This document shows positions 29,380-47,323 of a DNA stretch of 64,000 nt, in pieces. A program made the translations under genes and the position numbers. A model generated the notes under the pieces. That model made no database searches. It saw only the letters and a program-made list of their open reading frames with translations, and was not told the origin of the DNA. Position 1 is the first letter of the stretch. Every line of letters starts with the position of its first letter. This DNA is from an uncultured Gammaproteobacteria bacterium (GTDB lineage Bacteria; Pseudomonadota; Gammaproteobacteria; Steroidobacterales; Woeseiaceae). The DNA lies in the NCBI GenBank assembly GCA_963711285.1, contig CAVQDJ010000018.1:190325-254324 (forward strand), written 5' to 3'.

Positions 29380-31542
29380 ATGCCGAACCTTTTCAGAGAA
29401 TTACGACGTAGAGAGGTCTTCCGTACCGCGGGCCTCTATGTCGGTGTGGCGTGGATTCTGATCGAGGGCGCCAGCGTATTCCTACCGGCATTCGACGCGC
29501 CGGAATGGGCACTTCGCGCCTTGATTATTGCCGCGATCGTGGGTCTCCCGATCACGATCGTCCTGGCCTGGATTTATGACATCACCGACAAAGGGATCGA
29601 GGTTCAGGGTGATCCAACGGACACGGTGGTGGTCCCAATAGGCAGCCGCAAGATGGACTTTATGGTCATCGGCGTTTTGTCCGTAGCTCTGATCTTTTCT
29701 CTTTATCTGGTCTTCACGGGCACCGGCACAGCAGTCATTGAAGAGATCGAACCGATCTCGGTATTGATTGCAGATTTCGATAACAGGACCGGGGACGAGC
29801 TCTTCGACGGCACGCTCGAGCAAGCACTGCAGATCGGCATTGAGAGCGCATCGTTCATAACGGGCTACCGCAGGGATGAAGCAAAAAGAGTGGCAACGAA
29901 GATGAAGTGGGCGAGCGATACGCTCAATGAAGAAACGGCGCGACTCGTGTCGGTTCGTGAGGGCATCAAGCTTGTCATGGCGGGTGCGATCGAAGAAAAG
30001 AGCGGCAGCTACACCCTGTACGTCAGAGCCGTTGATCCCAAGGGTGGCGAGGTACTGGCTTCCGTCGAGGTGGATGCCAAGAGCAAACTTGAGGTACTCG
30101 CCGCTGTCGGCACGCTCGCCGGTGACCTGCGCGAGGAACTGGGCGACGATTCGCTGGATCGCGAAAAACTCGTGGCGTCTGAGACATTCACCGCGAAATC
30201 GCTGGAGGCTGCACAGGCGTATGCGAGAGCGCAATCCCTGCAGTACAACGGCAAGTACGAAGAAGCAATGCAGTACTACCAGGAGGCGCTCGAGCGCGAT
30301 CCGGATTTCGGCCGGGCCTACTCGGGCCTGGCATTGAGCGCCAGCAGCCTCGGACGTGTGGACGAGGCCAGCGAGTTGTGGGGTAAAAGCCTGCAGCACC
30401 TGGACACGATGACCGAGCGCGAGCGGCTGCGGACGCTCGGCTTGTACTACTCACGCGTAACTCGAAACCGCGAGAAGGCGATCGAGAGCTATCGCGCGCT
30501 TGTCGAAAAATATCCGGCAGATGATGCCGCGCACAATGGCCTGGCGATCCAGTATTTTTATACGCTGGATTTTCAGAACGCGCTGCAAGCCGGTCAGGCA
30601 ATGCTCGAAATCTATCCGAATAGTGTGATGGGCCGCTCCAACTATGCGCTGTATGCGATGTACGCGAGCGATTTCGATACCGCGGTTGCAGAAGCGGAGA
30701 AGGTGCGTGAGTTGGACCCTTCGTACTTCAAGGGCTGGCTACCCGTTGCAGCAAAGGCGCTTGCCGACGACGATATCGAAGCTGCGAAGCAGGCCTATAC
30801 GAAGATGTCGCAAACGGGCGCGCGCGGTGCGTTGACCGGCACGCTCGGTCTCGCTGACGTCGCCTTGTATGCCGGGGAGTTCAACTATGCAGGCAACCTG
30901 CTCAAACAAAGCATCGAACAGGCGGAGGCTGCAGGCAGTCAGTATTACCTCGCAACCAATTACATTGCCCTGGCGGAAACGTATTGGCTGGCGAGCGACA
31001 CAACGGCTGCGCTCGAGGCAATTGCAACGGGGATGAAGTTTTCAGGTGGGCTGTCCCGGCAAGTTCCCGCAGCCCTGATGTATCTGACCACAGGGGACAT
31101 AGCGAAGGTGCAGGCGATTGCCGATCAATTAGGACAAAGCCTCCAGCCGCAGAGCCGTGCCTATGCGCGGCTGTTGGAGGGACTGGTTGCGCTCGACAAA
31201 GGCGAGAAGGTCGAAGCCATCAACCTGATTTCGGCCGGATCCCGACTCAGCAACCTCTGGCTGTTGCGGTTTTACCTGGGCAAGGCTTACTTCGAGGCCG
31301 GTTTCTATGCCGAGGCGCTCGATGAGTTCACCGCATGCTGGGACCGTCGGGGCGAAGCAATATCGATCTTTCTCGACGACCTGCCGACTTATCGCTACAT
31401 GGCGACGTTGCCGTATTGGCTGGGACGCGCACAGGAAGAGCTCGGCATGCAGGAAGTTGCGCAGCAAAACTACACGGCGTTTGTCGCTCGGCGTCCCGCC
31501 GGCGACCCGCTGGCGGATGATGCCCGCCAGCGGCTGCCCTGA
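29380..31542 (+). CDS. membrane-anchored tetratricopeptide-repeat protein
   Basis: An N-terminal RRREVFRTAGLYVGVAWILIEGASVFLP motif is followed by two TM segments. Multiple TPR-like units follow (YEEAMQYYQEALERDPDFGRAY...). Confidence 0.7.
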   Translation: MPNLFRELRRREVFRTAGLYVGVAWILIEGASVFLPAFDAPEWALRALIIAAIVGLPITIVLAWIYDITDKGIEVQGDPTDTVVVPIGSRKMDFMVIGVLSVALIFSLYLVFTGTGTAVIEEIEPISVLIADFDNRTGDELFDGTLEQALQIGIESASFITGYRRDEAKRVATKMKWASDTLNEETARLVSVREGIKLVMAGAIEEKSGSYTLYVRAVDPKGGEVLASVEVDAKSKLEVLAAVGTLAGDLREELGDDSLDREKLVASETFTAKSLEAAQAYARAQSLQYNGKYEEAMQYYQEALERDPDFGRAYSGLALSASSLGRVDEASELWGKSLQHLDTMTERERLRTLGLYYSRVTRNREKAIESYRALVEKYPADDAAHNGLAIQYFYTLDFQNALQAGQAMLEIYPNSVMGRSNYALYAMYASDFDTAVAEAEKVRELDPSYFKGWLPVAAKALADDDIEAAKQAYTKMSQTGARGALTGTLGLADVALYAGEFNYAGNLLKQSIEQAEAAGSQYYLATNYIALAETYWLASDTTAALEAIATGMKFSGGLSRQVPAALMYLTTGDIAKVQAIADQLGQSLQPQSRAYARLLEGLVALDKGEKVEAINLISAGSRLSNLWLLRFYLGKAYFEAGFYAEALDEFTACWDRRGEAISIFLDDLPTYRYMATLPYWLGRAQEELGMQEVAQQNYTAFVARRPAGDPLADDARQRLP

Positions 31543-31560
31543 TAAATTAAGAAGCCTCGC

Positions 31561-34500
31561 CTATCGCACCGTTATCGGCGGTGATACCTGAACCTGGCCA
31601 GTCAGGCTGCTCTGCACGATGGCACAGTAATCGCCGGGCGGAACGTCTGTCTCCCAGTTAAACTGCCAGTAATTGTTGGCTTTATAGCGGAAGCCGCTCG
31701 CGCCCGGATCTCCCGCCATCTGCAGTACGATCACGCCGGACGAACATTCTTTTATCTGCAGCATCTGCATGTCGCCAGAGCTGTTAACTGCGCTGCCGTT
31801 GGCATTAAGCCACGCCCACAATAACGGATCCGAACTTCCTCGGTTCACAACGGTCTTTCGCGGATCTATACCCGTGAAGCCTGCATACATAAACTCGACG
31901 ATGACAGTACGTGTAATCTCCGTCGTGTTGCCCGAGCTGTCCGTCGCAGAAATGTAGACTGTGTATGTACCCGCCGCTGTTGTGTCCACGGCGCTCGCAT
32001 CAATAGTCACGCCGATCGGCCCGTCGGCATTGTCTTCTGCCGTGGCCCCGGCATCGACGTACGGTCCCGGGCCAGACTCGATGGTAATGGTTGTATCACC
32101 GTTCAGCGTGATGACAGGTGGCGTATCGTCAATTATGGTCACGACAAACGAACCCATGGCACTGTTGTTGCCGGAATCGGTCGCCGTGCACTCGACGGTT
32201 GTCGTTCCAACCGTGAAGTCGTGGACGAAAACGTACAGACCATTGGGTACGTCGGAAAGCGCCGGGTCAAGCGTGCCGACCGAACAGAACACGGTCGGTG
32301 CAGCATCGGCATCCTCCACGTTAAACGGACCCCAGAACAGCTGAAACGAACTCGCGTCGTCAGCAAGCACGAATGGCTCATTCTGGTCGAACAGCGGCGG
32401 GCTTATGCCGCTGATCGTCGGTGCGCTGGTGTCCTGTACGGTCACATCGAAGCTTGCGAAGTCCTGATTAAAGCTGTCGTCAGTCGCTGTACACGTGACT
32501 GTCGTCGGTTGCGGAGCACTCAGTGGGAAAGTGCTGCCGGAGGCCGGGCTGCATGCAACCTCGACGTCGGTATCGACGCCGAACTCGTCCGTCGCGTTCG
32601 GCGTCGCAAACACGTACGGCGCTCCGGCCGGACTGGTCGCCTCGATCGTGACGTTCGCCGGCACACTGGCTGAATCAATCGTCGGCGGGCGAGTATCGAG
32701 AACGCTCACGAGCAGGTCGACCGAGACGACCTCGCCGTCGTCGAGCGCCTCGCATGACAATGGCGTCGGTCCCGGATCAGGCGTGTTGTCGATGTCGAGC
32801 CCGACAAAGCTGCCGAGGGCCGGCGTGCACGTAACCGGCACCAGGTCCGAGCCCCTGAAGGCCTGAACGAAATCGGTCGGCAGGAAGGTACCGCCCGCGG
32901 CCGAGGCTTCGAGCGTGCCCGTATCGCCGGTCTCGAAGTTGAAGACCACCGGAATATTGATAATCAGTTCCTGATCGTTGTTCAGGTTCGTGGACAGCGT
33001 ATTGGCAACCTGCGACGAGAACACGATAAGCAATCTTGTCGCTCGTCAGTCGAGGCGCGATTTCTTCCATCAAGGAGCGCGGCGCAATGAACCGCAGCGT
33101 GTTCTGCAGCACGTCACCCGGACCAATAACGTAGGTCAGAATGCCTAAACGGTTGTCGTTGATATTCGGAATTTCCAGTGTCGCCAGATCCGGATTATTT
33201 ACCGCGGCGACCACCCGATTCTCGCTGATGATTCTCGGTGCGCAAAACTGCACGTCGTCAATCTTCTTGTCCTGCCACGCGATAAGCTGTGTGACCAGCT
33301 CGCCGCTCTCGAGCAGCGCAAGTATCACAGGATCGGTGACCGCGAAGTCAACGGTGTACGGAGTAATCGTGTTACCAATGTTCTGCACGCCGTAGTTGAT
33401 GTCGAGCTTGACGACGAGGCCGTCGATCGCGCCGAGGTCCGGGTCCGGGATCTCGGGATTGTCGAGTTTCGACGGGTCCGTCAGCGGCGAATTGAATTCG
33501 TCCGGGTTGAACTCGTCGGGATTGAACTCGTCCGGATTGAACTCGTCGGGATTGAACTCGTCGGGATTGAACTCGTCGGGATTGAACTCGTCCGGATTGA
33601 ACTCGTCCGGATTGAACTCGTCGGGATTGAATTCATCGGGCGTGTAAAGGTCGGGATTGAATTCATCGGGATTGTATTCATCCGGGTTGAACTCATCGGG
33701 GTTGAATTCGTCGGGCGTGTAAACCTTCGGATTGTGAATCTCGAAATCGTTGAGCGAGCCGTTGGCATTCAGCAACGGTCCCGATTCGACGGCGCCGTTG
33801 ACGGTAATCGTGTTGATCAGCACTTCCGGACCGCTGGCTGGCACTTCGAACACGTTTACTGACACCGGGTTCACGTTTGCCGTCGAATAGACGAACAGGG
33901 CCGTCGCCTCGCTGGAGCGCGGCCCGACAAAGATCGTCTCAGTTTCGTTCGGGGGTGTCGTCGCGAAGTCGGGGTATGTCGGATCCAGCGGCAGTTGGTC
34001 CCAGGAAGCGCGCGCGTCGGCCGGAAAGCCTGTCGGCTGATTGGCGATCGCCAACCGGAATGTCTTGGTCAACGTGCTCGCGTTTTCCACCACGATCGAG
34101 TACGAGCGCTGGATCGAACCCAGCGTCTTGTTCGGATTGAATGAAAACGCTGTAGCCTGGTCCTCGATAAGCGCACCGTATATGTCGAAATCCTTGGTTC
34201 GGTTGTTGAGTGCATCGAACACGACACCGGCACCCGGGTTGTTTACGGGTGCGCAGAATCCGGCGCCAGGATTGAAATCCTCGACACTGAGAGCGAGTCG
34301 GGTTTCTTCATCGTTCACCAGCGGGATTGGCGCATCACTGCCCGATTTCGCCGCCGTCGTCGCGCCCGGCGTTCGCGCATAGGGCACCAGATCCGTCGGC
34401 TGCGCAGTGTAGATGTCGCCGCTAACATTGCGTGAGGTGACAAACGACATCCAGAACACTGGCTCTTTACTCGGGTTCTGCACGTCGTATGACGAATTGT

Positions 34501-36199
34501 CCTCCCAGAACGGTGGGTTCTCCGGAATCGACGGGTCGAAGACGAGCCGCTGCCTGACTGACGTCATGCCGCTGTAATCGCCCATGAACGGTTTGCTTCT
34601 CGTCTTGTAGGCCTTGATATTCCAGCCATCGCCTTCGATCTCCCTGACGGTGCCGTCTATGAGCGCCTTGCGATAGCGGGACACGACGGCAGGCGGATCG
34701 TCGGTCGCGACAGGCTGCCCGCTATCGATCAGGACCCTGGTCGTCAATACCCGCGCGGTGCGCCGAAACTGGATAACGGAATTCGGCCCGGCGTTGAAGT
34801 TGAAATCGGCGAGCACAGGGTAATTCAGGAAAGCGTTCAGTGCGGCGGGGGCAGCCGGGCTCACGCTGACGTTTTCGAGGTAGTTGCGAACACGAAGCGT
34901 GTCGAAGCGGCTGTCCCACCAGCCGACCTGGCACACGCCGAGCGAGCAGTCGATGACGGGCTTGAACTGGAAGCCGTGATCGGCGTTCGGCGCGATCTCG
35001 ACCGGTTCGCTCCAGTTCTTGCCGTTGGCCGAACCGACCACGGCCTTGATACGCGAATCCGTGGGCTGGTCGAACGTCGTAAAACATCCTCCATCCGAGC
35101 TCAGCTTGCGCTCCGAATACACGAGGATGAACTTTTCGCCGTTATTGCTGACCGATGGAAAATCGTTGTTGCGCGACGCCACCGCGTTTTGAATGGTGTC
35201 GTTCGGAAGAGTCGGCACGTCGTACGCACAGAGTGGTGACACGATGTCGAACGGCTTGCCAATTCTTTGCCCGCCATCGTTGGAGATGGCGCCGCGCATC
35301 GCGGAAGGCTGACCCTCTTCGGCAAAGACACGAAACACATAGAGCACCTTGTCGCCCATAGCCGTAACGCTGACACCCTGGTCGCGGCCGGAGGTCACGG
35401 CCACCTGCTTCGGATTGCTGAACGAGCCACCGTAATTGTCGGTGTACACCGAGAGAATCTCGATGTCGTTCTTGCTCGGATTAAACAGGGCAAAAGTGAC
35501 CAGGATGCGGGCCTTCGGCCATTGCCGCGTGATTGTCTCGACAGAGCCGTCGGGTCGTTCAACCTGCATGGTGACGTCGATCGTGCCCGGATTGCTCTCG
35601 TCGAGGATGTACGTGCCGTTGACTTTGTCCGCGAACTTGCTGCCGGTCGTGCGGTAGACCTGCACGGGGGTTGGTTCAAGGCTCTTGCGAAAGCCGGCCT
35701 CGGAGTTGAGATCCATCATGCGCTGCATGTAGATGCCGCCGCCGGTGCCGCCGGCCGGGCCACGGTCGGCGCCAATGTGCAGAATGCCACAGCCGCCGGG
35801 CCAGCAAAGCGTAATCGGATCTGCTGTAAATCCGACGCCCAGGCTTGTCGCGGGGTTCAACCGCGTGCCGTTGATATAGCGATTGAAAAAAGTTTTGCCG
35901 CCATCGAGGGTCTCGGACATGCGGATGGCAGTGTCGCCCGGACCAGCCGGGTCATCGGAACCACCACTGGCATTCCAGGCACAGATAATATTGCGCGCAA
36001 GCAACGGATTGATCGCGCAGCTCGGTTCATTGTCCTGCATCGCCGGGATACCGCGGTACTGGCCCGGTGCCGTTCTACCGACAACGTCCGAATTCAGTTC
36101 AACCGATGAAAATTGGGCCGACGCCGGGCCGCCGGCAAACGAAATCACCAGTAGCCCGAGACAAGCCAAGACGTAAATACGACTCACTTTCATGTGCAC
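31561..36199 (-). CDS. very large secreted or surface protein: Asp-box/BNR-like N-domain, PDEFN repeat linker, HYR and Ig-like domains (apparent frameshift near 33030-33036)
   Basis: - Signal peptide: MKVSRIYVLACLGLLVISFAGGPASAQ.
- Asp-box-like motifs: SETLDGGKTF, SNDGGQRIG.
- 15 PDEFN pentapeptides.
- HYR-like units: ...TRPPTIDSASVP...ATDEFG...VACSPASGSTFPL..TTVTCTATDDSFN...FDVTVQDTSAPTI.
- An Ig-like unit: DTPPVITLNGD...YVDAGATAEDNADG.
- The two ORFs (32777-36199 and 31561-33033) join as ...LTSDK/LLIVFSSQVANTL... when one base is skipped. Confidence 0.7.
33491..33715 (-). repeat. 15-bp in-frame tandem repeat x15, encoding (PDEFN)n
   Basis: The plus-strand units are ATTGAAYTCRTCSGG. The translation is PDEFN PDEFN PDEYN PDEFN PDLYT then PDEFN x10. 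Variation among units is mainly at wobble positions. Confidence 0.95.
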
Positions 36200-36372
36200 C
36201 CCTCGAATGGGAACGTGACCGACGGAGCGTAATCACCGCCTCCACAATTTTATTTATTACTTTAATGTGTACGATTGTTTTTCTAAATTATGTCGCCTGC
36301 TCATTATAGAGCATGGTGCGACCGTTTCATCAGGTACAGCCAAGATATACTCACTTACATTATGTCAATGAT

Positions 36373-37392
36373 TTATCGGGGTTTTCCGAGCACATAGAGC
36401 TGCCAAAGGTCCTTGCGCGTCATGTGCAGGAAAGGCCGCAGGGCGAGTACCCCGGTCTTGCCGATACTGTCTTCGAGGTAGTCCATCTCGGCGAATTTTT
36501 CCCGCGTGCGCTCGCCGATCGGTGCATCGAGACCGTTTTCCCGCATCATCAGCACACCTTTCGCACGCAGCGCGAGCTCCGTGTACAGGCGCAGATAGCA
36601 AAGCATGTCGACAACGACAGGACCTTCGAATTTGCTGCGAAGGTCGTTAAGAAATCGACCGATCTTGGATTCGGCGAACTCTCCCGAACTGATCTGCTGC
36701 AGCAGGCGCGCGTCTGCGTCGAAATCCAGTTCGAGCCATTCGTGCAAGTGTTCGGCACTCTTCCGGAATACAACAGCCAGCAACGGTGGCAATAGAATCA
36801 GATAGCTCATGGTCATCAGGATCGGTGGCAGCACGAAATGATTGAAGAACGAATGAAACGTGATCGCGGCGACGAGCCCGGGCAAATAGAACAACGGATT
36901 GATCTTCATGTTTCGTTCGGTCAGGGCCTGCGACATGATTGCAAAGATGGCCGTTACACCGCCATGCATGATGGCGGTGCCGAAACCGCGGACAATCCAG
37001 ACCGCGACGTGCGCGTCACCGGCCGATTGTAAGTAGTAGAAATTCTCGACGACAGCGAATCCGGTTCCGACGGCAAAACCCATGATGGCGCTATCAACAA
37101 GAAAACCGATCCGATTCATGCGAAATAGCCAGACGATGACGATGGCTTTGAGCGATTCTTCGGTAAGCGGCGACACGTAGCGCGTGAAACTCCTGAAATC
37201 GGTCTGCAACTGCTCGAGCAGAAAGCCGTTGACGAAGTACGCGACAACTGTTGCCAGCGCGCCGGCAAAGATTACCCACAAGACGGTCTTCAGGCTGACC
37301 AGCTTGTAGCTGTCCATGTACATCAGAATGATCAGAAAGATCAGGACCGGCAACAATCCGACCGGCGCGCGGATGAGTAGATCCGTGGACAT
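36373..37392 (-). CDS. PrsW-family intramembrane metalloprotease with a C-terminal soluble extension
   Basis: Multi-TM protein with the PrsW signatures EExxK (PLTEESLKAI), GFAVGTGFAVVENFYY and AIMHGGVTAIFA. Its ATG lies 7 nt after the upstream gene's stop. Confidence 0.7.
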   Translation of the reverse strand: MSTDLLIRAPVGLLPVLIFLIILMYMDSYKLVSLKTVLWVIFAGALATVVAYFVNGFLLEQLQTDFRSFTRYVSPLTEESLKAIVIVWLFRMNRIGFLVDSAIMGFAVGTGFAVVENFYYLQSAGDAHVAVWIVRGFGTAIMHGGVTAIFAIMSQALTERNMKINPLFYLPGLVAAITFHSFFNHFVLPPILMTMSYLILLPPLLAVVFRKSAEHLHEWLELDFDADARLLQQISSGEFAESKIGRFLNDLRSKFEGPVVVDMLCYLRLYTELALRAKGVLMMRENGLDAPIGERTREKFAEMDYLEDSIGKTGVLALRPFLHMTRKDLWQLYVLGKPR

Positions 37393-37399
37393 CAGCCCA

Positions 37400-40342
37400 T
37401 CATAGTATTTTTAGCGAAATCATCCACTCATCGCTTAGCCTGTCGCCGCTCTCATACCCTGCCGCGTAGCCCACCGAGAGAGTCATTGGCAAGCGATGTG
37501 CCAACGTGAATTCGAGATCGAGCTGTGCGCCGAGCGTCGTGACGGTGCGTTCAGCAAGGTCGCCGATATCAGTTCTCAATCCACCGAAGAATATCGCGGG
37601 CCGGATGTGTTTCAAAAAGAAGCTCGGGATGCCGACCTCGCGGAAGCGGATCGGCGGCAAATTCCACTCCGCCATCGATTTGACGAAGTCGTTACCGGAC
37701 ACTTCGTCAATCTCGAAGCCCGGGAAGCTGTAGTACTCCCGATAGCGCTTTACCTCACCGTTATCCACGTAGTTGTTGCCGAAACCGCCGAAATAGAAAT
37801 TGCCGAGCGGATCCAGCGGACTGCCATTGCTTCTGCCCGCGGCGTTATAGAACCAGATCGACGAGTGCTTCCAGGGGAGCGCGAAGCCGAAGTCGAAGCC
37901 AACATGCGGTTTCGTTATCGTATCGAAGTCGGTTTCGTCGACCTCCAGATTGATGTCCCAACGAAATCCTTTCTCGTCGTCTACGGCGCCGATCGACTTG
38001 CGCGTATTGGTGTAGTGCAGTCCTAAGTCTGCAGACAGAATGTCCTCAAATAAAAACGTCGACACGTTTTGATTGTTCGGCAGGGTATCCAGACCACTGT
38101 AGTAGGCCAGCCGGGCGGAGAAATCCAGTTGCCGGGGCGTATCAAAAACAAGCGCCCGATCGTACCCGACGATGTACGCATCACCTTTGCGGCCGCGTTG
38201 TGTAGGACCGAATAGATCATAGAAATCAGCGTAGTTGTGCCAGTACCGGAAGTACCAGTTCAGCGCGTTGTACTCCAGGTTGACATGCACGCGTTCGTCG
38301 CTTGGAAGCTCGTCGTCCCAGGAGTAACTCGCCGTCAACTCGAAATTGTGCAGCTGCGCGGGATCCGACGTACGGAAGTGCCAACCGATGGCTTCGGTGT
38401 CACGATAGCCTTCAATAACGGGATACCCGGAGTCAAAACCGTGCTCCCGATAAGGACGATACTTGCCTTCGGTAGTGATCAGGTCTTCGTGATCAACCTC
38501 ATCCAGCGTATCGACGACGTTCCAGTCTTTAACGATGGGGTACTTGGCGGCGACCTGCGCACCCAGAAGCGTGATCGCACTGACGTCTTCGAGCGGCACC
38601 GGATCGATAACCGTCGGTACGAAGCCCTGCCCCGTATACTCAGAAACCAACAGCGTACCGTCGCTCAGTGGAATCGGTCGAAATAGTCCAGTCTCGGCAT
38701 TGCTGACGGCCTCGAGCTCCCCGGTCTCGATCTCAAAGCGGAAAATGTTGGATACACCGGTATAGAAGGAGCTACCGAAAAGGAACTTCGCGTCAGGAGA
38801 AAAGACAAAGCCCTCCGGAGCAGCCGGCGTGAGTTCAAGCTCTGCCACAGGCTGCGCCTGCTCTTCCAGCAGATCAGCAATGTTGAAAACCCTGAGATAT
38901 TGCCTGCCATCAATTTCTCCGACGGACGCCGACAATAGAGATCCGTCAGGCGAGATGTCCATTTCGTAGGCAACACTGCCATACGGCCAGGCGTACACGA
39001 GACTCCACTCAGTGTAGGGATAGGAAATTCGAACCAACGACACATAGCCGTTCAGATGTCGCAGGCCCCAAATTGAACGGTCTGATTTGTTGAAGACAAT
39101 ATCGCCAATGCGCGCGTCTTTAAGCAGCATCCGCTCTTTACCCGTGTCGACGTCAACCGCCATCAGATCACGATATGCCTGGTTATCTGCGGTATAGAAA
39201 AACGTTCGGCTGTCCGGATCGAATGCCGATGAGGTTACCCGATACGTCATGGGACCCTTGATATCGACTACACGCTCAACGCTGCCGTCGCGTAAGGAAA
39301 ACTTGCCAACGTGCGCCACAACTCCGGGATAACGGAACGCCCCGATCATCTCCCCCCGCTGCTCGTCAACATAGCTGCGAGAAATCGAACCGAGCGCCTG
39401 CTGCGTCAGTGGCTCTGTCGGCGTGAGCGGAAATTCTCTGACGGCCTCAAGGTTGGCCGTCTGAAATTCATGCTCGAATGCAATCCAGTCGTTCCATGCT
39501 TCTTCGAGCGGCTTTTCAAATATTTTCGCGAACTGCTTGGAATAATATTTCTCACTATCTTCGCCGCGTTGCAACCATTCGATGACATGCTCGGGTGAAT
39601 ATTGAAAGGCCAGATAGCTGATGAAGCGCGTGCCGTAAAGATAGGCGTTGACGCCCGCCTGAAAATCGACGCTTACACCCTCCGAGACAATGCCCAGGTT
39701 ACTGTAGAAGTATGCGTCGTCACGCACCATCGAGCGAAAGACCATTTCATCAAAGGCGCCCTGCGCACGTCCAACGCCACCCGACATCCAGGTTTCCATG
39801 AAGACAGCAGCGCCTTCGAGATACCAGCGGGGTGCGCTGAGCCGCGGCACAGTAAGGTAGTTATAGACAATGGACTCGGGATGTTTATCCGTTTGCCGTG
39901 GTTTGCCGCCGAAGAACTTTCGCCAGCGCAAGTCCTGCGAATTTGCGACGTCCATGTTGGCGACGTGCACGAGCTCATGATTCATGATCATGAATATTCG
40001 TTCGCTGCTCGGCATGGTTTCGAGCGTGCGACTGGCTGGCGCGACAAAAACGGAAACGCCGTTATATGGAGATGCTGCCGCGCCCGCGTTACCGTAGTCA
40101 CTGAGGTCCGTCAGGATGATGGTCGCCTTCTCTTGGGGCGTCCATGCAAAGATTTGTTTCTGGAAATCCAGAGAATTGTGAAAATTTCGAATAACGTGCG
40201 GGACAAGGTAGGTCTGGAACGGATCGAAATAAAGCAGCCGGACTTCGTCTGTCTCGACCACGTCCATCTCGAATGCATCTGCCGTTGCGCGACCCGCGAA
40301 CGACAGAAATCCTATCAGTGCGATTAACGCAATCGCGCGAAT
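37400..40342 (-). CDS. putative envelope zinc metalloprotease (HExxH) fused to a PD40/TolB-like beta-propeller and a C-terminal beta-barrel-like region
   Basis: - HELVH is embedded in IFMIMNHELVHVANMD.
- Propeller-like repeats are present: MDISPDGSLLSAS, FVFSPDAKFLFGSS.
- The C-terminus has alternating hydrophobic strands.
- The first canonical start is the ATG at 40267.
- The in-frame upstream codons encode a signal peptide (I)RAIALIALIGFLSFAGRATA/DAFE.
- An ATT lies at 40342, 8 nt after a GGAGG. Confidence 0.6.
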   Translation of the reverse strand: MRAIALIALIGFLSFAGRATADAFEMDVVETDEVRLLYFDPFQTYLVPHVIRNFHNSLDFQKQIFAWTPQEKATIILTDLSDYGNAGAAASPYNGVSVFVAPASRTLETMPSSERIFMIMNHELVHVANMDVANSQDLRWRKFFGGKPRQTDKHPESIVYNYLTVPRLSAPRWYLEGAAVFMETWMSGGVGRAQGAFDEMVFRSMVRDDAYFYSNLGIVSEGVSVDFQAGVNAYLYGTRFISYLAFQYSPEHVIEWLQRGEDSEKYYSKQFAKIFEKPLEEAWNDWIAFEHEFQTANLEAVREFPLTPTEPLTQQALGSISRSYVDEQRGEMIGAFRYPGVVAHVGKFSLRDGSVERVVDIKGPMTYRVTSSAFDPDSRTFFYTADNQAYRDLMAVDVDTGKERMLLKDARIGDIVFNKSDRSIWGLRHLNGYVSLVRISYPYTEWSLVYAWPYGSVAYEMDISPDGSLLSASVGEIDGRQYLRVFNIADLLEEQAQPVAELELTPAAPEGFVFSPDAKFLFGSSFYTGVSNIFRFEIETGELEAVSNAETGLFRPIPLSDGTLLVSEYTGQGFVPTVIDPVPLEDVSAITLLGAQVAAKYPIVKDWNVVDTLDEVDHEDLITTEGKYRPYREHGFDSGYPVIEGYRDTEAIGWHFRTSDPAQLHNFELTASYSWDDELPSDERVHVNLEYNALNWYFRYWHNYADFYDLFGPTQRGRKGDAYIVGYDRALVFDTPRQLDFSARLAYYSGLDTLPNNQNVSTFLFEDILSADLGLHYTNTRKSIGAVDDEKGFRWDINLEVDETDFDTITKPHVGFDFGFALPWKHSSIWFYNAAGRSNGSPLDPLGNFYFGGFGNNYVDNGEVKRYREYYSFPGFEIDEVSGNDFVKSMAEWNLPPIRFREVGIPSFFLKHIRPAIFFGGLRTDIGDLAERTVTTLGAQLDLEFTLAHRLPMTLSVGYAAGYESGDRLSDEWMISLKIL

Positions 40343-40398
40343 ATCGATTCCCTCCCCCGTTCTTATTATTATTTCCTCGATAATACTCTGATTGTAAG

Positions 40399-40438
40399 GA
40401 CGCGCACCCGCAGGCTAATCGCAATACGGGCGCGCGTC
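40399..40438 (-). other. intercistronic stem-loop (12-bp stem) between the repeat-protein gene and the metalloprotease gene
   Basis: The minus-strand RNA pairs GACGCGCGCCCG with CGGGUGCGCGUC, with one G-U pair and a 16-nt loop. On the plus strand the same position is an A-C mismatch, so the hairpin is better in the sense transcript. No U-tract follows. Confidence 0.4.
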
Positions 40439-40468
40439 GAGCAGTTGGCTGTAGGAGCGGTACCTCGC

Positions 40469-41704
40469 CTAGTTCACGCTGCTGCGCTGTACATTCATCA
40501 TTACATCAGAACGCAGCGCTTCGCGGAACACGTCGCTGCTAAGTGCCTGACGGAACACGTCATTACTCAGCGCCTGACGGAACACATCGTTGCTTAGTGC
40601 CTCGCGGAACACGTCATTGCTCAGCGCTTGACGGAACACATCGTTGCTTAGTGCCTGGCGGAATACGTCGTTACTCAGCGCCTGACGGAATACGTCGTTA
40701 CTCAGTGCCTGACGGAATACGTCGTTACTGAGTGCCTGACGGAAAACGTCGTTGCTGAGCGCCTGACGGAATACGTCGTTACTCAGCGCCTGACGGAATA
40801 CGTCATTGCTCAACACCTGACGGAATACGTCGTTACTCAGCGCCTGACGGAATACGTCGTTGCTGAGTGCCTGACGAAAGACGTCGTTGCTCAGAACCTG
40901 GCGAAATGCGTCGCTTGCAAATGCGTCTTGCAAAGCTGCATCCCTGGCCAGAACATCCGCCAGCGCCGCATCACTTCTAAGGACATCGCTCAGTTCCGCA
41001 TCGCTGCGCAGTGCCTGACGGAATACGTCGTTGCTCAGCGCCTGACGAAATACGTCGTTGCTCAGCGCCTGACGGAACATATCGTTGCTCAATGCCTGGC
41101 GAAATACGTCGTTACTGAGCGCCTGACGGAATACGTCGTTACTCAGCGCCTGACGGAATACGTCGTTACTGAGTGCCTGACGAAACACGTCGTTGCTCAG
41201 CGCCTGACGGAATACGTCATTACTCAATGCCTGGCGGAACACCTCATTGCTCTGTGCCTCACGAAACACCTCATTGCTCTGTGCTTCACGGAACACTTCA
41301 TTGTTCAGGGCCGCGCGGAATACATCATTGCTCAACGCCTGACGAAACACGTCGTTACTCAGGACCTCACGAAACAAGTCGTTGCTCAGCGCCTGTTGGA
41401 ACACGTCGTTGCTGAGTGCTTGACGAAATGCATCAGTCTGCATTGCTTCTGCAAAAGACGCGTCGCTGACGATCATCTGATATACGTCGGTTTGCATGAC
41501 CTGCGCCATGGTCTCGTCATCCAGAGTAACGTCATCGCCGCTTATTTGCTCACCGCGGTAACGTTCCGCCGGAGCGACTGTTCCAGCCGCATCATCGCCT
41601 GGGACAGTGTACTTGACTCCGACATAGGCAACGACTGCAATCGCAATTACAAATGCGACGATCATCGTTGTCCTTCGGGACTTGGTCTGTTCCATACTGC
41701 TCAT
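40469..41704 (-). CDS. single-pass membrane protein made almost entirely of DVFRQALSN nonapeptide repeats
   Basis: An AGGAG Shine-Dalgarno lies 7 nt before the ATG at 41704 (MSSMEQTKSRRTT). A TM segment follows (MIVAFVIAIAVVAYVGV), then 16 and 15 nine-residue units separated by three degenerate 10-residue units. A longer ORF starts at 41761 and abuts the anti-sigma stop. Confidence 0.75.
   Translation of the reverse strand: MSSMEQTKSRRTTMIVAFVIAIAVVAYVGVKYTVPGDDAAGTVAPAERYRGEQISGDDVTLDDETMAQVMQTDVYQMIVSDASFAEAMQTDAFRQALSNDVFQQALSNDLFREVLSNDVFRQALSNDVFRAALNNEVFREAQSNEVFREAQSNEVFRQALSNDVFRQALSNDVFRQALSNDVFRQALSNDVFRQALSNDVFRQALSNDMFRQALSNDVFRQALSNDVFRQALRSDAELSDVLRSDAALADVLARDAALQDAFASDAFRQVLSNDVFRQALSNDVFRQALSNDVFRQVLSNDVFRQALSNDVFRQALSNDVFRQALSNDVFRQALSNDVFRQALSNDVFRQALSNDVFRQALSNDVFREALSNDVFRQALSNDVFRQALSSDVFREALRSDVMMNVQRSSVN
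40508..41434 (-). repeat. 27-bp in-frame tandem repeat array (about 31 units plus 3 degenerate 30-bp units)
   Basis: The 27-nt periodicity is visible directly (plus strand: ...gcctgacggaaYacRtcRttRctYagYgc...). The units differ mostly at synonymous positions. The encoded peptide is nearly invariant: (D/E)VFR(Q/E)ALSN. Confidence 0.95.
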
Positions 41705-41761
41705 TGTCTTACTCCTATTGTCTGAACTCTGCGTCACCGATTTCGGGTAACCGCCGTTCAT

Positions 41762-42538
41762 TTACCAGGTTGCCTGCAGCAAACCACGCTCCAGCAACCT
41801 GCCATTACTTGAAAACTCAAGTTCGATCTTTGCCTGACCTTCAAACGTCGCATCACCAACATGGCTCAACAGCACCGTCAGCCTGCGTTCTCCGCTCGCC
41901 CGCACCTGCAGGGCGGAATCAGCAATAGCAATAGACTCGAAACTGTCTTTGAGTTGCGCCAGCGCGCCCGGCCAGATTCCGGCCGGCGAAATAGTCACGG
42001 AGATATCGAGCGGCTGATCCGCTTCAATCTGGATATCCAGGTACAGATTGCCGTCCCGGCGCTGCAGCTGTGCCAGAGACGCGAACCCATCCTTGCGAAA
42101 GTCATACACGTCGACAATGTCGGCCTCGGCAACCACACGATCCGGCGCCATCGTGCCGACCAATTTAGAGAAATCCGGCGTGCCGGTTAAGATCACCTGG
42201 CTCTCGTAAAGGCTTACAGCGAGCAGCACCCCTGCCGCCGCTGCCAGCCCATAGCGAAACAGTGCGCCGAGATCCGGCGGACGCTGCCACCCGCGACCGG
42301 AAGGCTGCGGCGATGCGCCGGGCAAGTCGATGCTATCCACGATGCGCGCGTGCAGCGAGCCCGGCACATCCAGTGCCTGAGAATCGAGCAGGATCGCATC
42401 CATCTGCTCGAGGTGGGCCGCAAACTCGCGCGCTTCTGATGAACTCTCGAGCAGTCGTTCCAATTCGGTCTGCTCGTCCGCCGTGAGCTGGCCATCCGCG
42501 GCAGCACTGATCAACTGCATGGTACGTTCATCAGTCAT
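41762..42538 (-). CDS. putative anti-sigma factor (single TM, periplasmic C-terminal domain)
   Basis: Its start overlaps the sigma-factor stop as ATGA. The N-terminus is anti-sigma-like (MQLISAAADGQLTADEQTELERLL...AHLEQ). A TM segment follows (LFRYGLAAAAGVLLAVSLY), then a C-terminal domain of about 140 aa. Confidence 0.65.
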   Translation of the reverse strand: MTDERTMQLISAAADGQLTADEQTELERLLESSSEAREFAAHLEQMDAILLDSQALDVPGSLHARIVDSIDLPGASPQPSGRGWQRPPDLGALFRYGLAAAAGVLLAVSLYESQVILTGTPDFSKLVGTMAPDRVVAEADIVDVYDFRKDGFASLAQLQRRDGNLYLDIQIEADQPLDISVTISPAGIWPGALAQLKDSFESIAIADSALQVRASGERRLTVLLSHVGDATFEGQAKIELEFSSNGRLLERGLLQATW

Positions 42539-43080
42539 GATGAAAACACTCCGTGTTGGCACAGCTTGTCGCGCATATGTCGACGTGCCTCGAAAAGTCT
42601 GGATTTCACTGTTTTTTCGGGCAATCGCAGAATCTCGCCGATTTCCCGATAGCTGCAATCACTGAAATAGCGCAAGGCAATAACGGCTCGTTGATCCTCA
42701 TTCAGCTCCATCAGTGTCGCCTGAACTTCGTCTCGCAGCTGTGAGGTTTCGACATTGTCCTGCGGCATGTCGGCATCCGAATGCGCCGTATCGGCAAGCG
42801 GCTGCGTGCGTTTGCGCCGCTTCAGCTGGTCGATGGACTCGTTGAGTGCAACGCGATAGGTCCAGCTGAAGAGTCTGCGGCTGGGGTCAAAGCGTTGAAT
42901 ATTCTCGAAAACCTTCAAAAACGTCACCTGCGTGACGTCCGCCGCCTCATCGGGGTTACCCAACATGCGATAAGCGGCGTTGTAGACGGGTTTTTCCAGT
43001 TGTCTCACGAGCGTATCCAATGCTTTTTTATCGCCTTTCTGGCAGGCCATAACCAAGTTTGTTTCCTGGTCCCTATTCAT
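42535..43080 (-). CDS. ECF-family RNA polymerase sigma factor
   Basis: 181 aa. Region 2 reads YNAAYRMLGNPDEAADVTQVTFLKVFENIQRFD...FSWTYRVALNESID. Region 4 reads QRAVIALRYFSDCSYREIGEILRLPEKTVKSRLFEARRHM. Confidence 0.9.
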   Translation of the reverse strand: MNRDQETNLVMACQKGDKKALDTLVRQLEKPVYNAAYRMLGNPDEAADVTQVTFLKVFENIQRFDPSRRLFSWTYRVALNESIDQLKRRKRTQPLADTAHSDADMPQDNVETSQLRDEVQATLMELNEDQRAVIALRYFSDCSYREIGEILRLPEKTVKSRLFEARRHMRDKLCQHGVFSS

Positions 43081-43128
43081 AAGTACTCCGCAGGCCCGGA
43101 AAAGTTGGTGAATTCATATCTGAGGCCT

Positions 43129-43431
43129 TCATTGCGATGATTCCCCGGTCTCGATCTGGAACAGCTTGTCAAAGCCCGAGTACATGAATATGTCATTGAT
43201 GTGATGATTGACGTTTACAAGTCTGAGGCCGTGATTTCCCTCCATCAGGCGCTTATGGGTGCGCAACAGCACGCCCAGACCCGCGCTGGAGATGTATTCC
43301 AGCTTGCGCAGATCGAGGACGCAGTCCCCGGCCACCGCGTCCAGAAACTCCTGCGCGTGCGGCGCCTGAGCCGCATCCAGCCGGCCCTCGGCTATGATGT
43401 TTCCCAAGTCATCAAATCCGATTTGAAACAT
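43129..43431 (-). CDS. STAS-domain anti-sigma-factor antagonist (RsbV/SpoIIAA-like)
   Basis: 100 aa. LDLRKLEYISSAGLGVLLRTHKRL contains the conserved phosphorylatable Ser context (D/E-x-I-S-S-x-G-L). Confidence 0.85.
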   Translation of the reverse strand: MFQIGFDDLGNIIAEGRLDAAQAPHAQEFLDAVAGDCVLDLRKLEYISSAGLGVLLRTHKRLMEGNHGLRLVNVNHHINDIFMYSGFDKLFQIETGESSQ

Positions 43432-43434
43432 GTT

Positions 43435-43836
43435 TTATTTCCGATCCGCGATAAAAGTGATCTTGCTTTTTCGATCCCGGTACTCGTAGTGAATCGAACT
43501 CACCATCTTGAGTACGAGGTAAAGCCCCAGTCCGCCGGGAGTTCGTTGCTCGAGCGGCGCATCAACGTCCACGGGATCAACCTCGCGCGGATCGAAGCGC
43601 TTCACGCCAAAACTGGTCAGACTGACCTCGACACCGCGTTCATGGGGCTGCATTTCGATCAGGACGTCCGTCTTGGTCTCCGTGTCATAGGTCACCATAT
43701 TGACGAACAGTTCCTCGACGCAGAGATCGACGATGTAGCGGACAGACTGGTCGATATCGTGCTCGGCAAAAAAACTGTCCGTAAATCCCACGATGTTCTT
43801 GAGTTCGTTGAGGCTTCTTCTGAATTCTCGTTGCAT
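43435..43836 (-). CDS. RsbW/SpoIIAB-like anti-sigma serine kinase (HATPase_c_2)
   Basis: About 133 aa with an N-box-like region (VDLCVEELFVNMVTY) and a G-box (TPGGLGLYLVLKMV). I chose the ATG at 43836, with a GGGGGA Shine-Dalgarno upstream. Its stop lies 3 nt before the STAS start. Confidence 0.8.
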   Translation of the reverse strand: MQREFRRSLNELKNIVGFTDSFFAEHDIDQSVRYIVDLCVEELFVNMVTYDTETKTDVLIEMQPHERGVEVSLTSFGVKRFDPREVDPVDVDAPLEQRTPGGLGLYLVLKMVSSIHYEYRDRKSKITFIADRK

Positions 43837-43852
43837 TATCCTATTCCCCCGA

Positions 43853-45064
43853 TCAGGGCCGCTTGTCTGGCAGCCGTCGCACCAGAACAAGAGTAATGTC
43901 ATCGGCCTGCGGCGCGTCGCCGCCAAATTCGAAGGCGGCATCCACGAGATTTTGGCTCAGTTCTGCCATTGAAAGCTCATGTGATTGTGCAAATACGTCT
44001 GCCACACGCTGCTCTCCGAACTGCGAGCCATCCGCGTTCGCGTATTCATAGACTCCGTCGGAAATCAGAGCGAGCACATCGCCTGGAGCCAGCTCGAGCC
44101 TCTTGGCGCGCGCCGTACCGTCGAGTTCCATGATTCCGACCGGAAAGCTCGTGGGCTTGAACCACTCGCACTCGTTGTTGGCGGCTCGATAGACCATTAT
44201 CGGGCCCTGGCCGCCGGAGTGGTATTCCACCAAGTGCGTTTCGGGGTCGAGAAAACCCATGAAAGCTGTGATGAAGCGGTCGTCAGGCAGGTCTTCGTTA
44301 AGCTGATTGTTCACATGCATGTAGGCGCTGTCGAGATCGGCACCTAGCCGGAATGCGACGCGTAGCATCGCCTGCATCTGAGTGGCCGAAAGGGCCGGTC
44401 CGAAGCCGTGACCCGTCGCGTCACCAAGCAGTATGAAAAGCCGCCCATCAAGAACGACGAGATCGTACAGATCGCCGCCCGTGTGGTCCGTCGGCAGGAA
44501 CTGGCCGTGTAAGTCATAGCCTGCAACATGCGGCATCGCATCGGGAAGCGTGCTTATTTGGATTTCGCGCGCAACGGCAACTTCCTGGCTCAGAATGGCG
44601 TTGGCGAGCAGCTCGCTCGTCATTTCCGAATGCTGGATAGCGATAGCCGCCTCTGCTGCCAGTGCCGGTGCGATCCATTTGTCGTGTTTATCAAACTGCC
44701 GAGGATACTGACCCAGCCACTGCATGACACCCAGCAGCTGATCTTCCTGGCCCAGTATCGGCACGCTTAGCAGCGAGCGTGTTTCGAACTCGTCGAGCTG
44801 GACCGGTGCGGCCCCGAAGCGCTCATCATCACGGCACTCGTGAATGTTGTCGATTTCCAATGTCGCGGCGCATTGGCCGGCAAGCCCATCACCAAGCTTT
44901 TGCCGGACGGGCTTGTCACCTGTGGGGATGACCCTTACGAGCTCGCCTGACGGTCTGTCAAACAGCCACAGCACGCCGGCTTCGGCGACGATCGCAACCT
45001 TGCCGACTTCGATGATTTCCCGCAAGAGTTCGGGCAGCGCTTCGGGCGCCGCCAGCCGGTACAT
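43853..45064 (-). CDS. GAF domain-containing PP2C (SpoIIE/RsbU-type) serine phosphatase
   Basis: An N-terminal GAF-like half (LLREIIEVGKVAIVAEAGVLWLFD...) is followed by the SpoIIE signature (REIQISTLP...GGDLYDLV...LGDATGHGFGPALSATQM...ISDGVYE). Confidence 0.85.
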   Translation of the reverse strand: MYRLAAPEALPELLREIIEVGKVAIVAEAGVLWLFDRPSGELVRVIPTGDKPVRQKLGDGLAGQCAATLEIDNIHECRDDERFGAAPVQLDEFETRSLLSVPILGQEDQLLGVMQWLGQYPRQFDKHDKWIAPALAAEAAIAIQHSEMTSELLANAILSQEVAVAREIQISTLPDAMPHVAGYDLHGQFLPTDHTGGDLYDLVVLDGRLFILLGDATGHGFGPALSATQMQAMLRVAFRLGADLDSAYMHVNNQLNEDLPDDRFITAFMGFLDPETHLVEYHSGGQGPIMVYRAANNECEWFKPTSFPVGIMELDGTARAKRLELAPGDVLALISDGVYEYANADGSQFGEQRVADVFAQSHELSMAELSQNLVDAAFEFGGDAPQADDITLVLVRRLPDKRP

Positions 45065-45248
45065 GATCTCCAGGATCTTGACCAGCGATTCACGCGTAAT
45101 CTCGCTTGGATTCTGCTCGTGCAGAGGTACGGACAGAGTATGCTCCTTCCTCTTTTCTCGTTAGTTTTCTTATATTTAGCCGCCACACGACGGCTACGCT
45201 CGGTAACCCCAGATCGATGATGGCACAGATTTGAAAAAGAGTCCTTGC

Positions 45249-46103: not shown

Positions 46104-46178
46104 CCGCCGTATAGCCTAAAGTTATGTCAAATCGTGCCGATAACAGTGCTATGAACCATACCCAATGGTAGGCACGTT

Positions 46179-47162: not shown

Positions 47163-47323
47163 TCCAACTGAAAGACTGCACCTTGTGTCTTATTGACACC
47201 AAGTTGGCAGCCAGTCCGATGACGCCAAGACCATGCCAAGAGACTTTGCAAAGCTGGTCGAAGACGAGATTAAGGTGCAGCGTCGTTTGACAGCTAGCTG
47301 AGGCGTCGTGTATCAGCAGGTGC

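Follow-up and report, generated by a model that had tools for sequence, protein, structure and literature searches.

PrsW-triggered release of an extracytoplasmic function (ECF) sigma factor is known from Firmicutes, and in Bacillus subtilis the anti-sigma factor RsiW is cleaved by PrsW and RasP (PMC4598750). In a 64-kb stretch of DNA from a Woeseiaceae-like gammaproteobacterium (hereafter the window, whose positions are used as coordinates), we identified a module of eight genes that runs along the minus strand from 45136 to 36373. The genes encode, in order, a GAF-PP2C phosphatase, an RsbW-type kinase, a STAS protein, a SigW-like ECF sigma factor, an anti-sigma factor, an inner-membrane-anchored nonapeptide-repeat protein (REP), a predicted outer-membrane protein with an HExxH motif (the HExxH protein), and a PrsW-family protease (Table 1). 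With modest confidence, we read this arrangement as a conserved envelope-signaling module in which an envelope signal would lead to release of the sigma factor through PrsW and the partner-switching genes would supply a further input.

The locus shares with the B. subtilis sigmaW/RsiW/PrsW/RasP pathway a sigma factor that is closest to SigW in both NCBIfam and PDB comparisons, a promoter with an AAC element, a T-tract, a 17-nucleotide (nt) AAC-to-GTA spacing, and a (C/G)GTA -10 element (PMC5758882), as well as the pairing of a single-pass membrane anti-sigma factor with a PrsW-family protease (PMC4598750). It differs in its Gram-negative host, in an anti-sigma factor that has neither a zinc motif nor similarity to RsiW, and in the attachment of REP, a putative outer-membrane peptidase-propeller-barrel protein, and an RsbUVW-type switch. 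Furthermore, the sigma factor and PrsW both score below the equivalog cut-offs for their B. subtilis counterparts. The prsW gene lies within the sigma operon here, whereas that of B. subtilis is unlinked from the sigma operon.

The classical partner-switching systems RsbU/RsbV/RsbW and SpoIIE/SpoIIAA/SpoIIAB have the same three components, with the phospho-acceptor serine and catalytic boxes that are also present here, but they control the group-3 sigma factors sigmaB and sigmaF (PMC4598750). At this locus, in contrast, the adjacent ECF sigma factor already has a membrane anti-sigma factor, and the sensor of the phosphatase is a GAF domain. An ECF sigma gene also stands beside a PP2C/kinase/STAS switch in the Bordetella btr locus (BtrS with BtrU, BtrV, and BtrW) (PMC8256260), and we found no other described proteobacterial case of this kind in the literature. 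However, Btr controls type III secretion, phosphorylation promotes the binding of BtrV to BtrW, and none of the three switch proteins is a negative regulator (PMC8256260); moreover, PrsW, a membrane anti-sigma factor, REP, and the HExxH protein are absent from btr.

The proposed logic resembles that of the Escherichia coli sigmaE/RseA/RseB/DegS/RseP and FecA/FecR/FecI systems, in which an envelope signal leads to site-1 and then site-2 proteolysis of a single-pass anti-sigma factor, the first cut being controlled by a co-regulator in the periplasm (RseB) or by a partner in the outer membrane (PMC4598750). Here, the candidate for site-1 cleavage is the intramembrane protease PrsW rather than DegS or Prc, the putative co-regulator is a nonapeptide-repeat protein, and the outer-membrane partner would be a peptidase-propeller-barrel protein rather than a TonB-dependent transducer. 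With the Tol-Pal system there is a likeness of layout: REP resembles TolA in its N-terminal anchor and long repetitive periplasmic region, and the propeller of the HExxH protein is TolB-like (1crz, 2.8e-8). This likeness is an analogy only; the HExxH protein has no sequence membership in the TolB family and combines its propeller with a peptidase domain and a barrel in a single polypeptide.

The eight-gene order is conserved in related genomes

A preliminary description of this stretch had proposed a nine-gene cluster forming one functional unit, with a giant HYR-domain gene as the ninth member. HMM searches of the proteins against Pfam and NCBIfam recovered all the families that it had named (SpoIIE, RsbW-type kinase, STAS, ECF sigma factor, PrsW, and HYR), and all lie on the minus strand. 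We then compared gene order in 82 related loci (L001 to L082) by tblastn with the window proteins and jackhmmer over all open reading frames (ORFs), with each count limited to loci that have sufficient flanking sequence. The full phosphatase-kinase-STAS-sigma-anti-sigma-REP-HExxH-PrsW order recurs in 23 of the 37 loci with at least 5.5 kb upstream, so that the eight-gene arrangement is far beyond chance. Thus, synteny supports a conserved unit of eight genes and answers the concern that homologues might never be syntenic elsewhere; the ninth gene, which was found in only one of the 82 loci, does not belong to it. A conserved ninth gene downstream of PrsW was also sought, and none was found (the largest cluster had 5 of 92 members).

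Conservation is not uniform along the module. REP lies directly upstream of the HExxH gene in all 50 loci with at least 1.5 kb upstream, and PrsW directly downstream in 56 of the 71 loci with at least 1.2 kb downstream. Among the 37 loci already mentioned, the sigma/anti-sigma pair is found downstream of the HExxH gene in five and upstream without the switch in one (L043), whereas eight, seven of them alphaproteobacterial, have neither arrangement. These counts establish a layered architecture: a REP-HExxH-PrsW core, joined by the sigma/anti-sigma pair in Gammaproteobacteria and by the partner switch in a subset of these. The full eight-gene form is found in Woeseiaceae and Halieaceae. Twelve of the 15 loci that lack an adjacent PrsW gene are of the Steroidobacteraceae type, and in the two such loci that were read, a divergent PrsW of ~570 residues is encoded on the opposite strand (L022, Pfam 2.6e-11; L020, EExxK motif).

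Relatives of the HExxH protein number in the thousands, and those nearest to it are named Woeseiaceae or Woeseia. When the protein was used in an exhaustive search of representatives clustered at 50% identity, 3054 matches were obtained at E ≤ 1e-3 and 568 clusters at E ≤ 1e-30, with full-length members reaching down to ~25% identity. In contigs from one genome per species, relatives are encoded in 581 stretches or more, of which the 80 top-ranking loci come from Woeseiaceae, Steroidobacteraceae, "Lysobacterales", Halieaceae, Elongatibacter, and several alphaproteobacterial families. The Halieaceae loci include those of the isolates Haliea sp. E17 and Halieaceae bacterium WMMBA7, and these cultured strains carry the full cluster.

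Table 1. Genes and promoter of the module in the window, listed in the direction of transcription
Feature	Coordinates	Strand	Evidence and properties
GAF-PP2C (SpoIIE/RsbU-type) serine phosphatase	43853..45136	-	Pfam SpoIIE 1.8e-42, GAF 9.3e-12
RsbW-type serine kinase/putative anti-sigma factor, 133 aa	43435..43836	-	Pfam HATPase_c_2 8.7e-16
STAS anti-sigma-factor antagonist, 100 aa	43129..43431	-	STAS_2 2.5e-11; TIGR00377 63.6 bits (cut-off 53.45)
Predicted sigmaW-like ECF promoter, CCAACTTTTCCGGGCCTGCGGAGTACTT	43079..43111	-	3 nt between the -10 element and the sigma ATG
ECF sigma factor, SigW-like, 181 aa	42535..43080	-	Pfam Sigma70_r2 1.5e-17, r4_2 2.5e-16
Single-pass anti-sigma factor, 258 aa	41762..42538	-	N-terminal anti-sigma domain, transmembrane segment ~90-117, periplasmic C-domain
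REP, inner-membrane-anchored nonapeptide-repeat protein	40469..41704	-	Transmembrane segment 10-36, 29 nine-residue repeats
HExxH protein, predicted secreted outer-membrane protein (signal peptide, HExxH, TolB-like propeller, beta-barrel)	37400..40342	-	AlphaFold2, Foldseek, hidden Markov models (HMMs)
PrsW-family intramembrane protease, 339 aa	36373..37392	-	Pfam PrsW-protease (PF13367) 2.5e-20, 73.3 bits (cut-off 23.5)

A predicted sigmaW-like promoter connects the sigma factor with the envelope genes

The sigma factor belongs to the ECF class (group 4), having sigma2 and sigma4 domains within its 181 residues and a TIGR02937 score of 115.6 bits against a cut-off of 42.9. Its best NCBIfam match is SigW, at 129.5 and 121.1 bits against equivalog cut-offs of 209 and 243.1, respectively (PRK09641/TIGR02948), and its best PDB sequence match is B. 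subtilis SigW (5wuq, 1.2e-27).

Upstream of the sigma gene, within the 48-nt gap that separates it from the STAS gene, lies a predicted promoter of the pattern CCAACTTTT-N13-(C/G)GTA with a T-tract and an AAC-to-GTA spacing of 17 nt (CCAAC-N17-GTA). This site agrees in its -35 element, -10 element, and ECF spacing with the pattern for B. subtilis sigmaW promoters, tGAAACnTTTt ... CGTA (PMC5758882). Motif and spacing are conserved before the sigma gene in the sigma-bearing loci, with near-consensus variants in five. At 36.8 bits, it is the sole strong ECF site of the window, where the runner-up scores 9.0 bits and shuffled sequences reach maxima of 4.4 to 13.6. No ECF motif was found in the window before the phosphatase, REP, HExxH, or giant gene. 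One further candidate, CCAAC-N15-CGTA at 40425-40448, was rejected as an ECF promoter on account of its wrong spacing and chance-level score.

The sigma protein is conserved from the ATG that abuts the promoter, which begins 3 nt after the GTA in the window and 6 to 7 nt after it in other clades. Because this leaves no room for a leader between GTA and the conserved ATG, an mRNA made from this promoter would be leaderless or nearly so. The sigma factor is very probably autoregulated.

The preliminary description had placed REP and the HExxH protein in the regulon of the sigma factor. We examined this proposal with a weight matrix trained only on 35 sigma-proximal sites and applied to both strands of 1.14 Mb with a threshold of at least 15 bits. 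The matrix found 29 further sites, of which 21 are directly upstream of REP, five are before sigma genes, and three are elsewhere, as compared to 0 to 2 sites in shuffled sequences. Among the REP-upstream sites are those of eight Steroidobacteraceae-type loci in which the sigma gene is separate and located downstream of the HExxH gene. Since the same motif occurs upstream of REP in other lineages, the envelope trio of REP, HExxH protein, and PrsW is predicted to belong to the sigma regulon, as had been proposed for the first two. Of the evidence that the sigma factor may drive the envelope genes, this matrix scan is the strongest. The motif is repeated upstream of REP in lineages with spaced or rearranged genes. 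In the window lineage, where REP begins 57 nt past the anti-sigma gene, REP is presumably co-transcribed with that gene, with the sigma transcript running on into the envelope trio.

Two other kinds of site were noted. Locus L039 has a third strong copy of the ECF promoter (14068-14100, 36.2 bits) just downstream of prsW, with no obvious plus-strand gene ahead of it. In the alphaproteobacterial loci L057, L066, and L072, GTACCATTGAC is present ~60 to 90 nt before REP instead of the sigmaW-like motif, and in L073 and L075 only its (A/G)TTGAC core occurs at this distance. The alphaproteobacterial motif could be a different promoter or an operator.

The anti-sigma factor is fused to REP in some lineages

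The anti-sigma factor has one hydrophobic segment, at residues 90-117, and its gene follows the sigma gene in nearly all sigma-bearing loci. The exceptions are L059 (8420-9751), L060 (1111-2058), and L067 (3-1166), in which the anti-sigma domain is fused in frame to REP. The fusion ORF overlaps the sigma stop codon and encodes an anti-sigma domain, a linker, the REP transmembrane segment, the sequence GTIAPAQRYQ, and the repeats; the usual periplasmic domain of the anti-sigma factor is absent from these loci. Independent database proteins with the same layout (P0275 from Rudaea, P0276, P0277, and P0284) are 35 to 58% identical. The in-frame fusions imply that REP constitutes the extracytoplasmic part of the anti-sigma factor in these lineages. 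We also observed that the linker encodes, in frame, a second ECF promoter motif (PTNLFGAGPYT), and with a promoter motif at this position REP could also be expressed alone.

The nonapeptide repeats of REP reported in the preliminary description are real. Tandem Repeats Finder located two arrays of 27-nt units (40524-40918 and 41001-41425), and the repeats, of unit ALSNDVFRQ, are kept in strict register. They are lineage-specific in sequence, with the period of ~9 maintained: SDERFRKLA in Halieaceae and an Ala-rich QAFAAMARxP in Alphaproteobacteria. The head of the protein consists of the transmembrane segment and a conserved juxtamembrane stretch, AGT[IV]APAERYR...MQTD (AGTVAPAERYR in the window), which is the best-conserved part of REP. 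Only spurious low-complexity matches were obtained for REP in Pfam and NCBIfam, and nothing meaningful in PHROGs. A Halieaceae orthologue (L055, 8695-9744) does match Pfam DUF3106 (1.3e-8), and through this match REP may be connected with a broader group of repeat proteins.

A G-T-[MIV]-A-P motif is present both in the anti-sigma factor (LVGTMAPDR, residues ~127-131) and in REP (AAGTVAPAER, 41-45), in each case ~10 to 20 residues past the transmembrane segment. The motif could be a common recognition or cleavage site. A check for homology was weak: with the N-terminal HMM of REP, scores of anti-sigma factors did not exceed 10.7 bits (4.3 in controls), and the anti-sigma factor of the window itself scored 0.0.

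The HExxH protein and PrsW

The HExxH protein has 955 residues as originally called and ~980 with its upstream start. An AlphaFold2 model (predicted local distance difference test [pLDDT], 80.8; predicted template modeling score [pTM], 0.75) suggests three parts: an alpha/beta HExxH domain (1-280), a beta-propeller (290-555), and a C-terminal barrel of ~16 to 18 strands (600-955). Foldseek searches with the whole protein returned only propeller matches, with TolB (1crz) at the top. The score against the TolB equivalog TIGR02800 was 16.7 bits (cut-off, 343), and only the propeller fold is held in common. The barrel matched Omp85_2 weakly (0.002; 16 to 18 bits against a cut-off of 23.1).

We suggest that the HExxH domain is likely an active gluzincin-like peptidase. 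In 26 full-length members with identities as low as 23%, the conservation of H97, E98, H101, and E151 is 90% or higher, and the distant member P0140 matches Peptidase_MA_2 at 1.7e-5 (25.1 bits; cut-off, 32.4). When PDB sequences were searched with profiles from alignments of the full-length protein and of the N-terminal domain, nothing useful was obtained.

The EExxK and HxxxN motifs of PrsW are kept in 61 of 62 orthologues. Outside the Pfam model, the protein has a soluble C-terminal extension of ~130 residues (~210-339; 36373-36765), which was also present in the homologues that were read (L002 and L039) and which fits the orthologue lengths of ~320 to 400 residues.

These data bear on another reading, in which the trio would be an autonomous trans-envelope machine for proteolysis or tethering, with a TolA-like REP, a TolB-like propeller on a barrel, and a PrsW that processes REP. 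The role of the sigma factor would then be limited to rendering the trio inducible by stress in Gammaproteobacteria, with degradation of the anti-sigma factor left to other proteases. The trio is indeed conserved in Alphaproteobacteria without a nearby sigma/anti-sigma pair or switch, amid flanks that are unrelated to one another and with the different upstream motif GTACCATTGAC. Its support further includes the TolB-like fold of the propeller, the presence of REP beside the HExxH gene in all 50 loci, and the preferential conservation of the juxtamembrane stretch of REP. However, the fusions of the anti-sigma domain with REP tie REP to sigma control, the sigma factor is SigW-like, and PrsW is a known protease of the SigW pathway (PMC4598750). 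We therefore regard autonomy of the trio as possible but rather unlikely. Note that such autonomy and a cleavage of the anti-sigma factor by PrsW are mutually compatible.

The partner-switching genes

The three switch genes have the features expected of RsbW/SpoIIAB-type systems, namely a PP2C phosphatase, an HATPase_c_2 kinase, and a STAS protein with a conserved phospho-acceptor serine. Among orthologues, the phosphatase retains its metal-binding Asp motifs in 25 of 26, the ExxxN and GGLGL boxes of the kinase are present in 27 of 28, and the [IV]SSAGLG phospho-acceptor motif of the STAS protein is found in all 28. RsbW models match the kinase weakly (1e-3; 18 bits against equivalog cut-offs of 145 to 155).

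It is doubtful that these genes merely share the neighborhood and act on another target, such as secretion, cyclic di-GMP signaling, or translation, in the manner of Bordetella BtrU/V/W or Vibrio SypE/SypA. In each of the 23 switch-bearing loci, the switch stands directly upstream of the sigma gene and in the same orientation, across lineages with phosphatase identities as low as ~47%, and among these loci the switch genes never occur without a sigma gene. Nevertheless, there is a separate promoter for the sigma gene within the STAS-sigma spacer, so that the switch genes would form a transcription unit of their own, and sigma/anti-sigma pairs without the switch are found in L043 and in loci of the Steroidobacteraceae type. 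Non-canonical STAS systems have been described as well (PMC8256260), and a GAF-GGDEF gene lies just upstream of the module in the window.

That gene, which encodes a diguanylate cyclase (46179-47162, plus strand), is preceded by an S1/P1 nuclease gene (45249-46103, minus strand). In the two annotated flanks, both genes occupy this place in L002 but not in L001.

The giant HYR gene is an unrelated neighbor

Downstream of PrsW, the preliminary description had placed a secreted protein of ~1545 residues. This protein is not encoded by a single ORF. Instead, two ORFs of 1140 and 490 aa (32777-36199 and 31561-33033, respectively) overlap, and the span of the gene (31561-36199, 4639 nt) is not divisible by three. 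When compared to the intact 1513/1541-aa gene of the closest relative, L002, which is 81% identical in DNA over this gene, the window has a one-base insertion near 33027 (GCTTATCGTG versus GCTT-TCGTG). The insertion reflects either a pseudogene or an assembly error. Programmed frameshifting was rejected because there is no slippery sequence and the gene of the relative is intact. The downstream frame contains the domains HYR (2.8e-11) and Bact_surface_Ig-like (5.4e-15, both Pfam), but with the gene split by the insertion there is no intact secreted surface protein. Fifteen tandem 15-nt units at 33491-33715 encode PDEFN-type pentapeptide repeats, and the N-terminal 1051 residues had no match in Pfam, NCBIfam, or PDB.

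The 173-nt spacer before this gene contains the best sigma70-like promoter of the region (36330-36303, ATGAAA-16-TATAAT), and the gene has a G+C content of 58 to 60%, as compared to 54 to 55% for the module. L002 is the only one of the 82 related loci that carries it. The giant gene is therefore an unrelated, broken neighbor, and neither its assignment to the sigma regulon nor the label of a surface-remodeling or adhesion module, which rested mainly on this gene, is retained.

It follows that the nine-gene model, with the giant protein as an output of the regulon, is highly improbable. The gene does lie on the same strand and in the same place in the closest relative, and because the spacer has no terminator-like site, read-through into it is possible. 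Nevertheless, its rarity, its frameshift, its own promoter, the lack of an ECF motif, the differing G+C content, the absence of a conserved ninth gene, and the presence of a TIR/FGE-sulfatase gene at its position in L001 all argue against membership. This last gene (13993-16596 in L001, a relative of 4.7 Mb) encodes a TIR_2/FGE-sulfatase protein of 867 residues.

By blocks, G+C content was 54 to 55.5% over most of the module (36001-44000) and 58 to 60% both in the giant gene (32001-36000) and at 44001-46000, which includes the bulk of the phosphatase gene and the nuclease gene upstream.

Gene junctions and start codons

The individual junctions were found as they had been described. The kinase ATG follows the phosphatase stop codon by 16 nt and the STAS gene follows the kinase by 3 nt; the sigma and anti-sigma genes overlap in an ATGA (42538-42535); the TAA of the anti-sigma gene is followed immediately by an ATG (41764-41759), with the REP start at ATG 41704 backed by AGGAG; 7 nt separate the HExxH and PrsW genes; and the spacer before the giant gene has 41% G+C versus 57.6% in the window. 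The more general statement that the genes have near-zero spacing is accurate for these short junctions only, as it does not extend to the promoter-containing gaps between the STAS and sigma genes and between PrsW and the giant gene, or to the 126-nt gap between REP and the HExxH gene. A search of 30000-47500 with Rfam revealed no RNA family.

Two start sites required correction, as the HExxH protein and the phosphatase both begin farther upstream than had been assumed. For the HExxH protein, longer homologues have a signal peptide that ends in AxA just before a conserved FEMDVVETD. The corresponding in-frame sequence of the window encodes a signal peptide, (M)RAIALIALIGFLSFAGRATA, followed directly by DAFE, and offers no ATG, GTG, or TTG. 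The likely start is ATT 40342-40340, which is placed 7 nt past GGGGGAGGG; at the homologous position, Woeseiaceae-like loci have ATT or ATC, and other loci have GTG or ATG. For the phosphatase, translation most likely begins at CTG 45136-45134, and the first ATG (45064) follows 24 codons later. These 24 codons are conserved as protein, the homologous start codon is CTG, TTG, or GTG in other loci, the Shine-Dalgarno sequence AGGAAGGAG lies 6 nt upstream, and an in-frame TAA is found nine codons upstream. Thus, two genes of the cluster appear to use non-canonical start codons in conjunction with good Shine-Dalgarno sites. The use of ATT and CTG, with ATT/ATC or CTG at homologous positions in Woeseiaceae-like loci and GTG, TTG, or ATG elsewhere, suggests deliberately weak or regulated translation initiation.

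Discussion

In the reading that we favor, an envelope signal would be sensed via the outer-membrane HExxH protein, via REP, or via both. PrsW would then make the site-1 cut, as it does for B. subtilis RsiW, on the periplasmic side of the anti-sigma factor and/or REP, after which a housekeeping site-2 protease would free the sigma factor. The freed sigma factor would raise its own expression and that of REP, the HExxH protein, and PrsW. By partner switching, the GAF-PP2C phosphatase, RsbW-type kinase, and STAS protein would add a second, cytoplasmic input, with the kinase possibly acting as a second anti-sigma factor. A link between PrsW and the SigW-like sigma factor is plausible because SigW is the best NCBIfam and PDB match of the latter and because the promoter is sigmaW-like.

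A number of observations weigh against this reading. On the side of the sigma factor, the SigW scores are far below the NCBIfam equivalog cut-offs, and in the window lineage the GTA of the -10 element is only 3 nt from the ATG, which is unusually short for a transcript that starts at its A. No similarity to RsiW was detected for the anti-sigma factor, whose matches to anti-sigma models are below threshold (NF052375 "antisigma", 2.2e-7, 31.1 bits against 100; zf-HC2, 0.0057, 17.2 bits against 22.2). Its 258 residues include no Cys and hence no Cys/His zinc motif, and the HxxxCxxC of the ZAS subclass is absent. PrsW itself scores 32.1 bits against the PrsW equivalog NF033739, whose cut-off is 225. 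The sigma-bearing loci L008, L012, and L043 have no adjacent PrsW, and Alphaproteobacteria keep PrsW with REP and the HExxH protein in loci that lack both a sigmaW-like motif and, within 10 kb, a sigma/anti-sigma pair. Since PrsW stays with these two proteins where the sigma factor is missing, it need not act on the anti-sigma factor, and its primary partner may be REP instead. The isolated N-terminal domain of the HExxH protein gave a poor AlphaFold2 model (pLDDT, 57), for which Foldseek returned only non-significant matches to M9 and M1 peptidases. Finally, the partner switch is non-canonical in the sole known locus that combines an ECF sigma factor with RsbUVW-type genes, Bordetella btr (PMC8256260).

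Every regulatory part of the module comes from a known family; what is new is the combination, the proteobacterial link to PrsW, and two unannotated envelope families. The statement in the preliminary description that the combination is not a described system held up in the literature on PrsW, ECF classification, and non-canonical ECF regulation, the ECF group-description supplement excepted. With the same exception, we found no ECF group described as having PrsW or STAS neighbors. No case of proteobacterial PrsW-triggered ECF sigma release was found in the literature searched, and likewise no described precedent for an RsbW-type kinase that controls an ECF sigma factor.

A more far-reaching interpretation, which is speculative and in our view unlikely, is that the module represents the first Gram-negative case of PrsW-dependent regulated proteolysis, built as a two-compartment AND gate. 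In its envelope arm, the HExxH protein and REP would gate the cut by PrsW, and in some lineages REP would itself be the anti-sigma factor; in its cytoplasmic arm, the kinase would be a second anti-sigma factor under the control of the GAF-PP2C phosphatase and the STAS protein.

With this module, one may ask how an RsbUVW-type switch is connected to an ECF sigma factor. Because cultured strains, Haliea sp. E17 and Halieaceae bacterium WMMBA7, have the full cluster, the model can be tested. Woeseiaceae rank with the most abundant marine-sediment bacteria, and the module is widespread, with the HExxH protein encoded in at least 581 species-level genomes. It provides a concrete and testable context for two large unannotated families, REP and the ~980-residue putative peptidase-propeller-barrel protein, and the natural fusion of an anti-sigma domain to REP serves as a clue to function.

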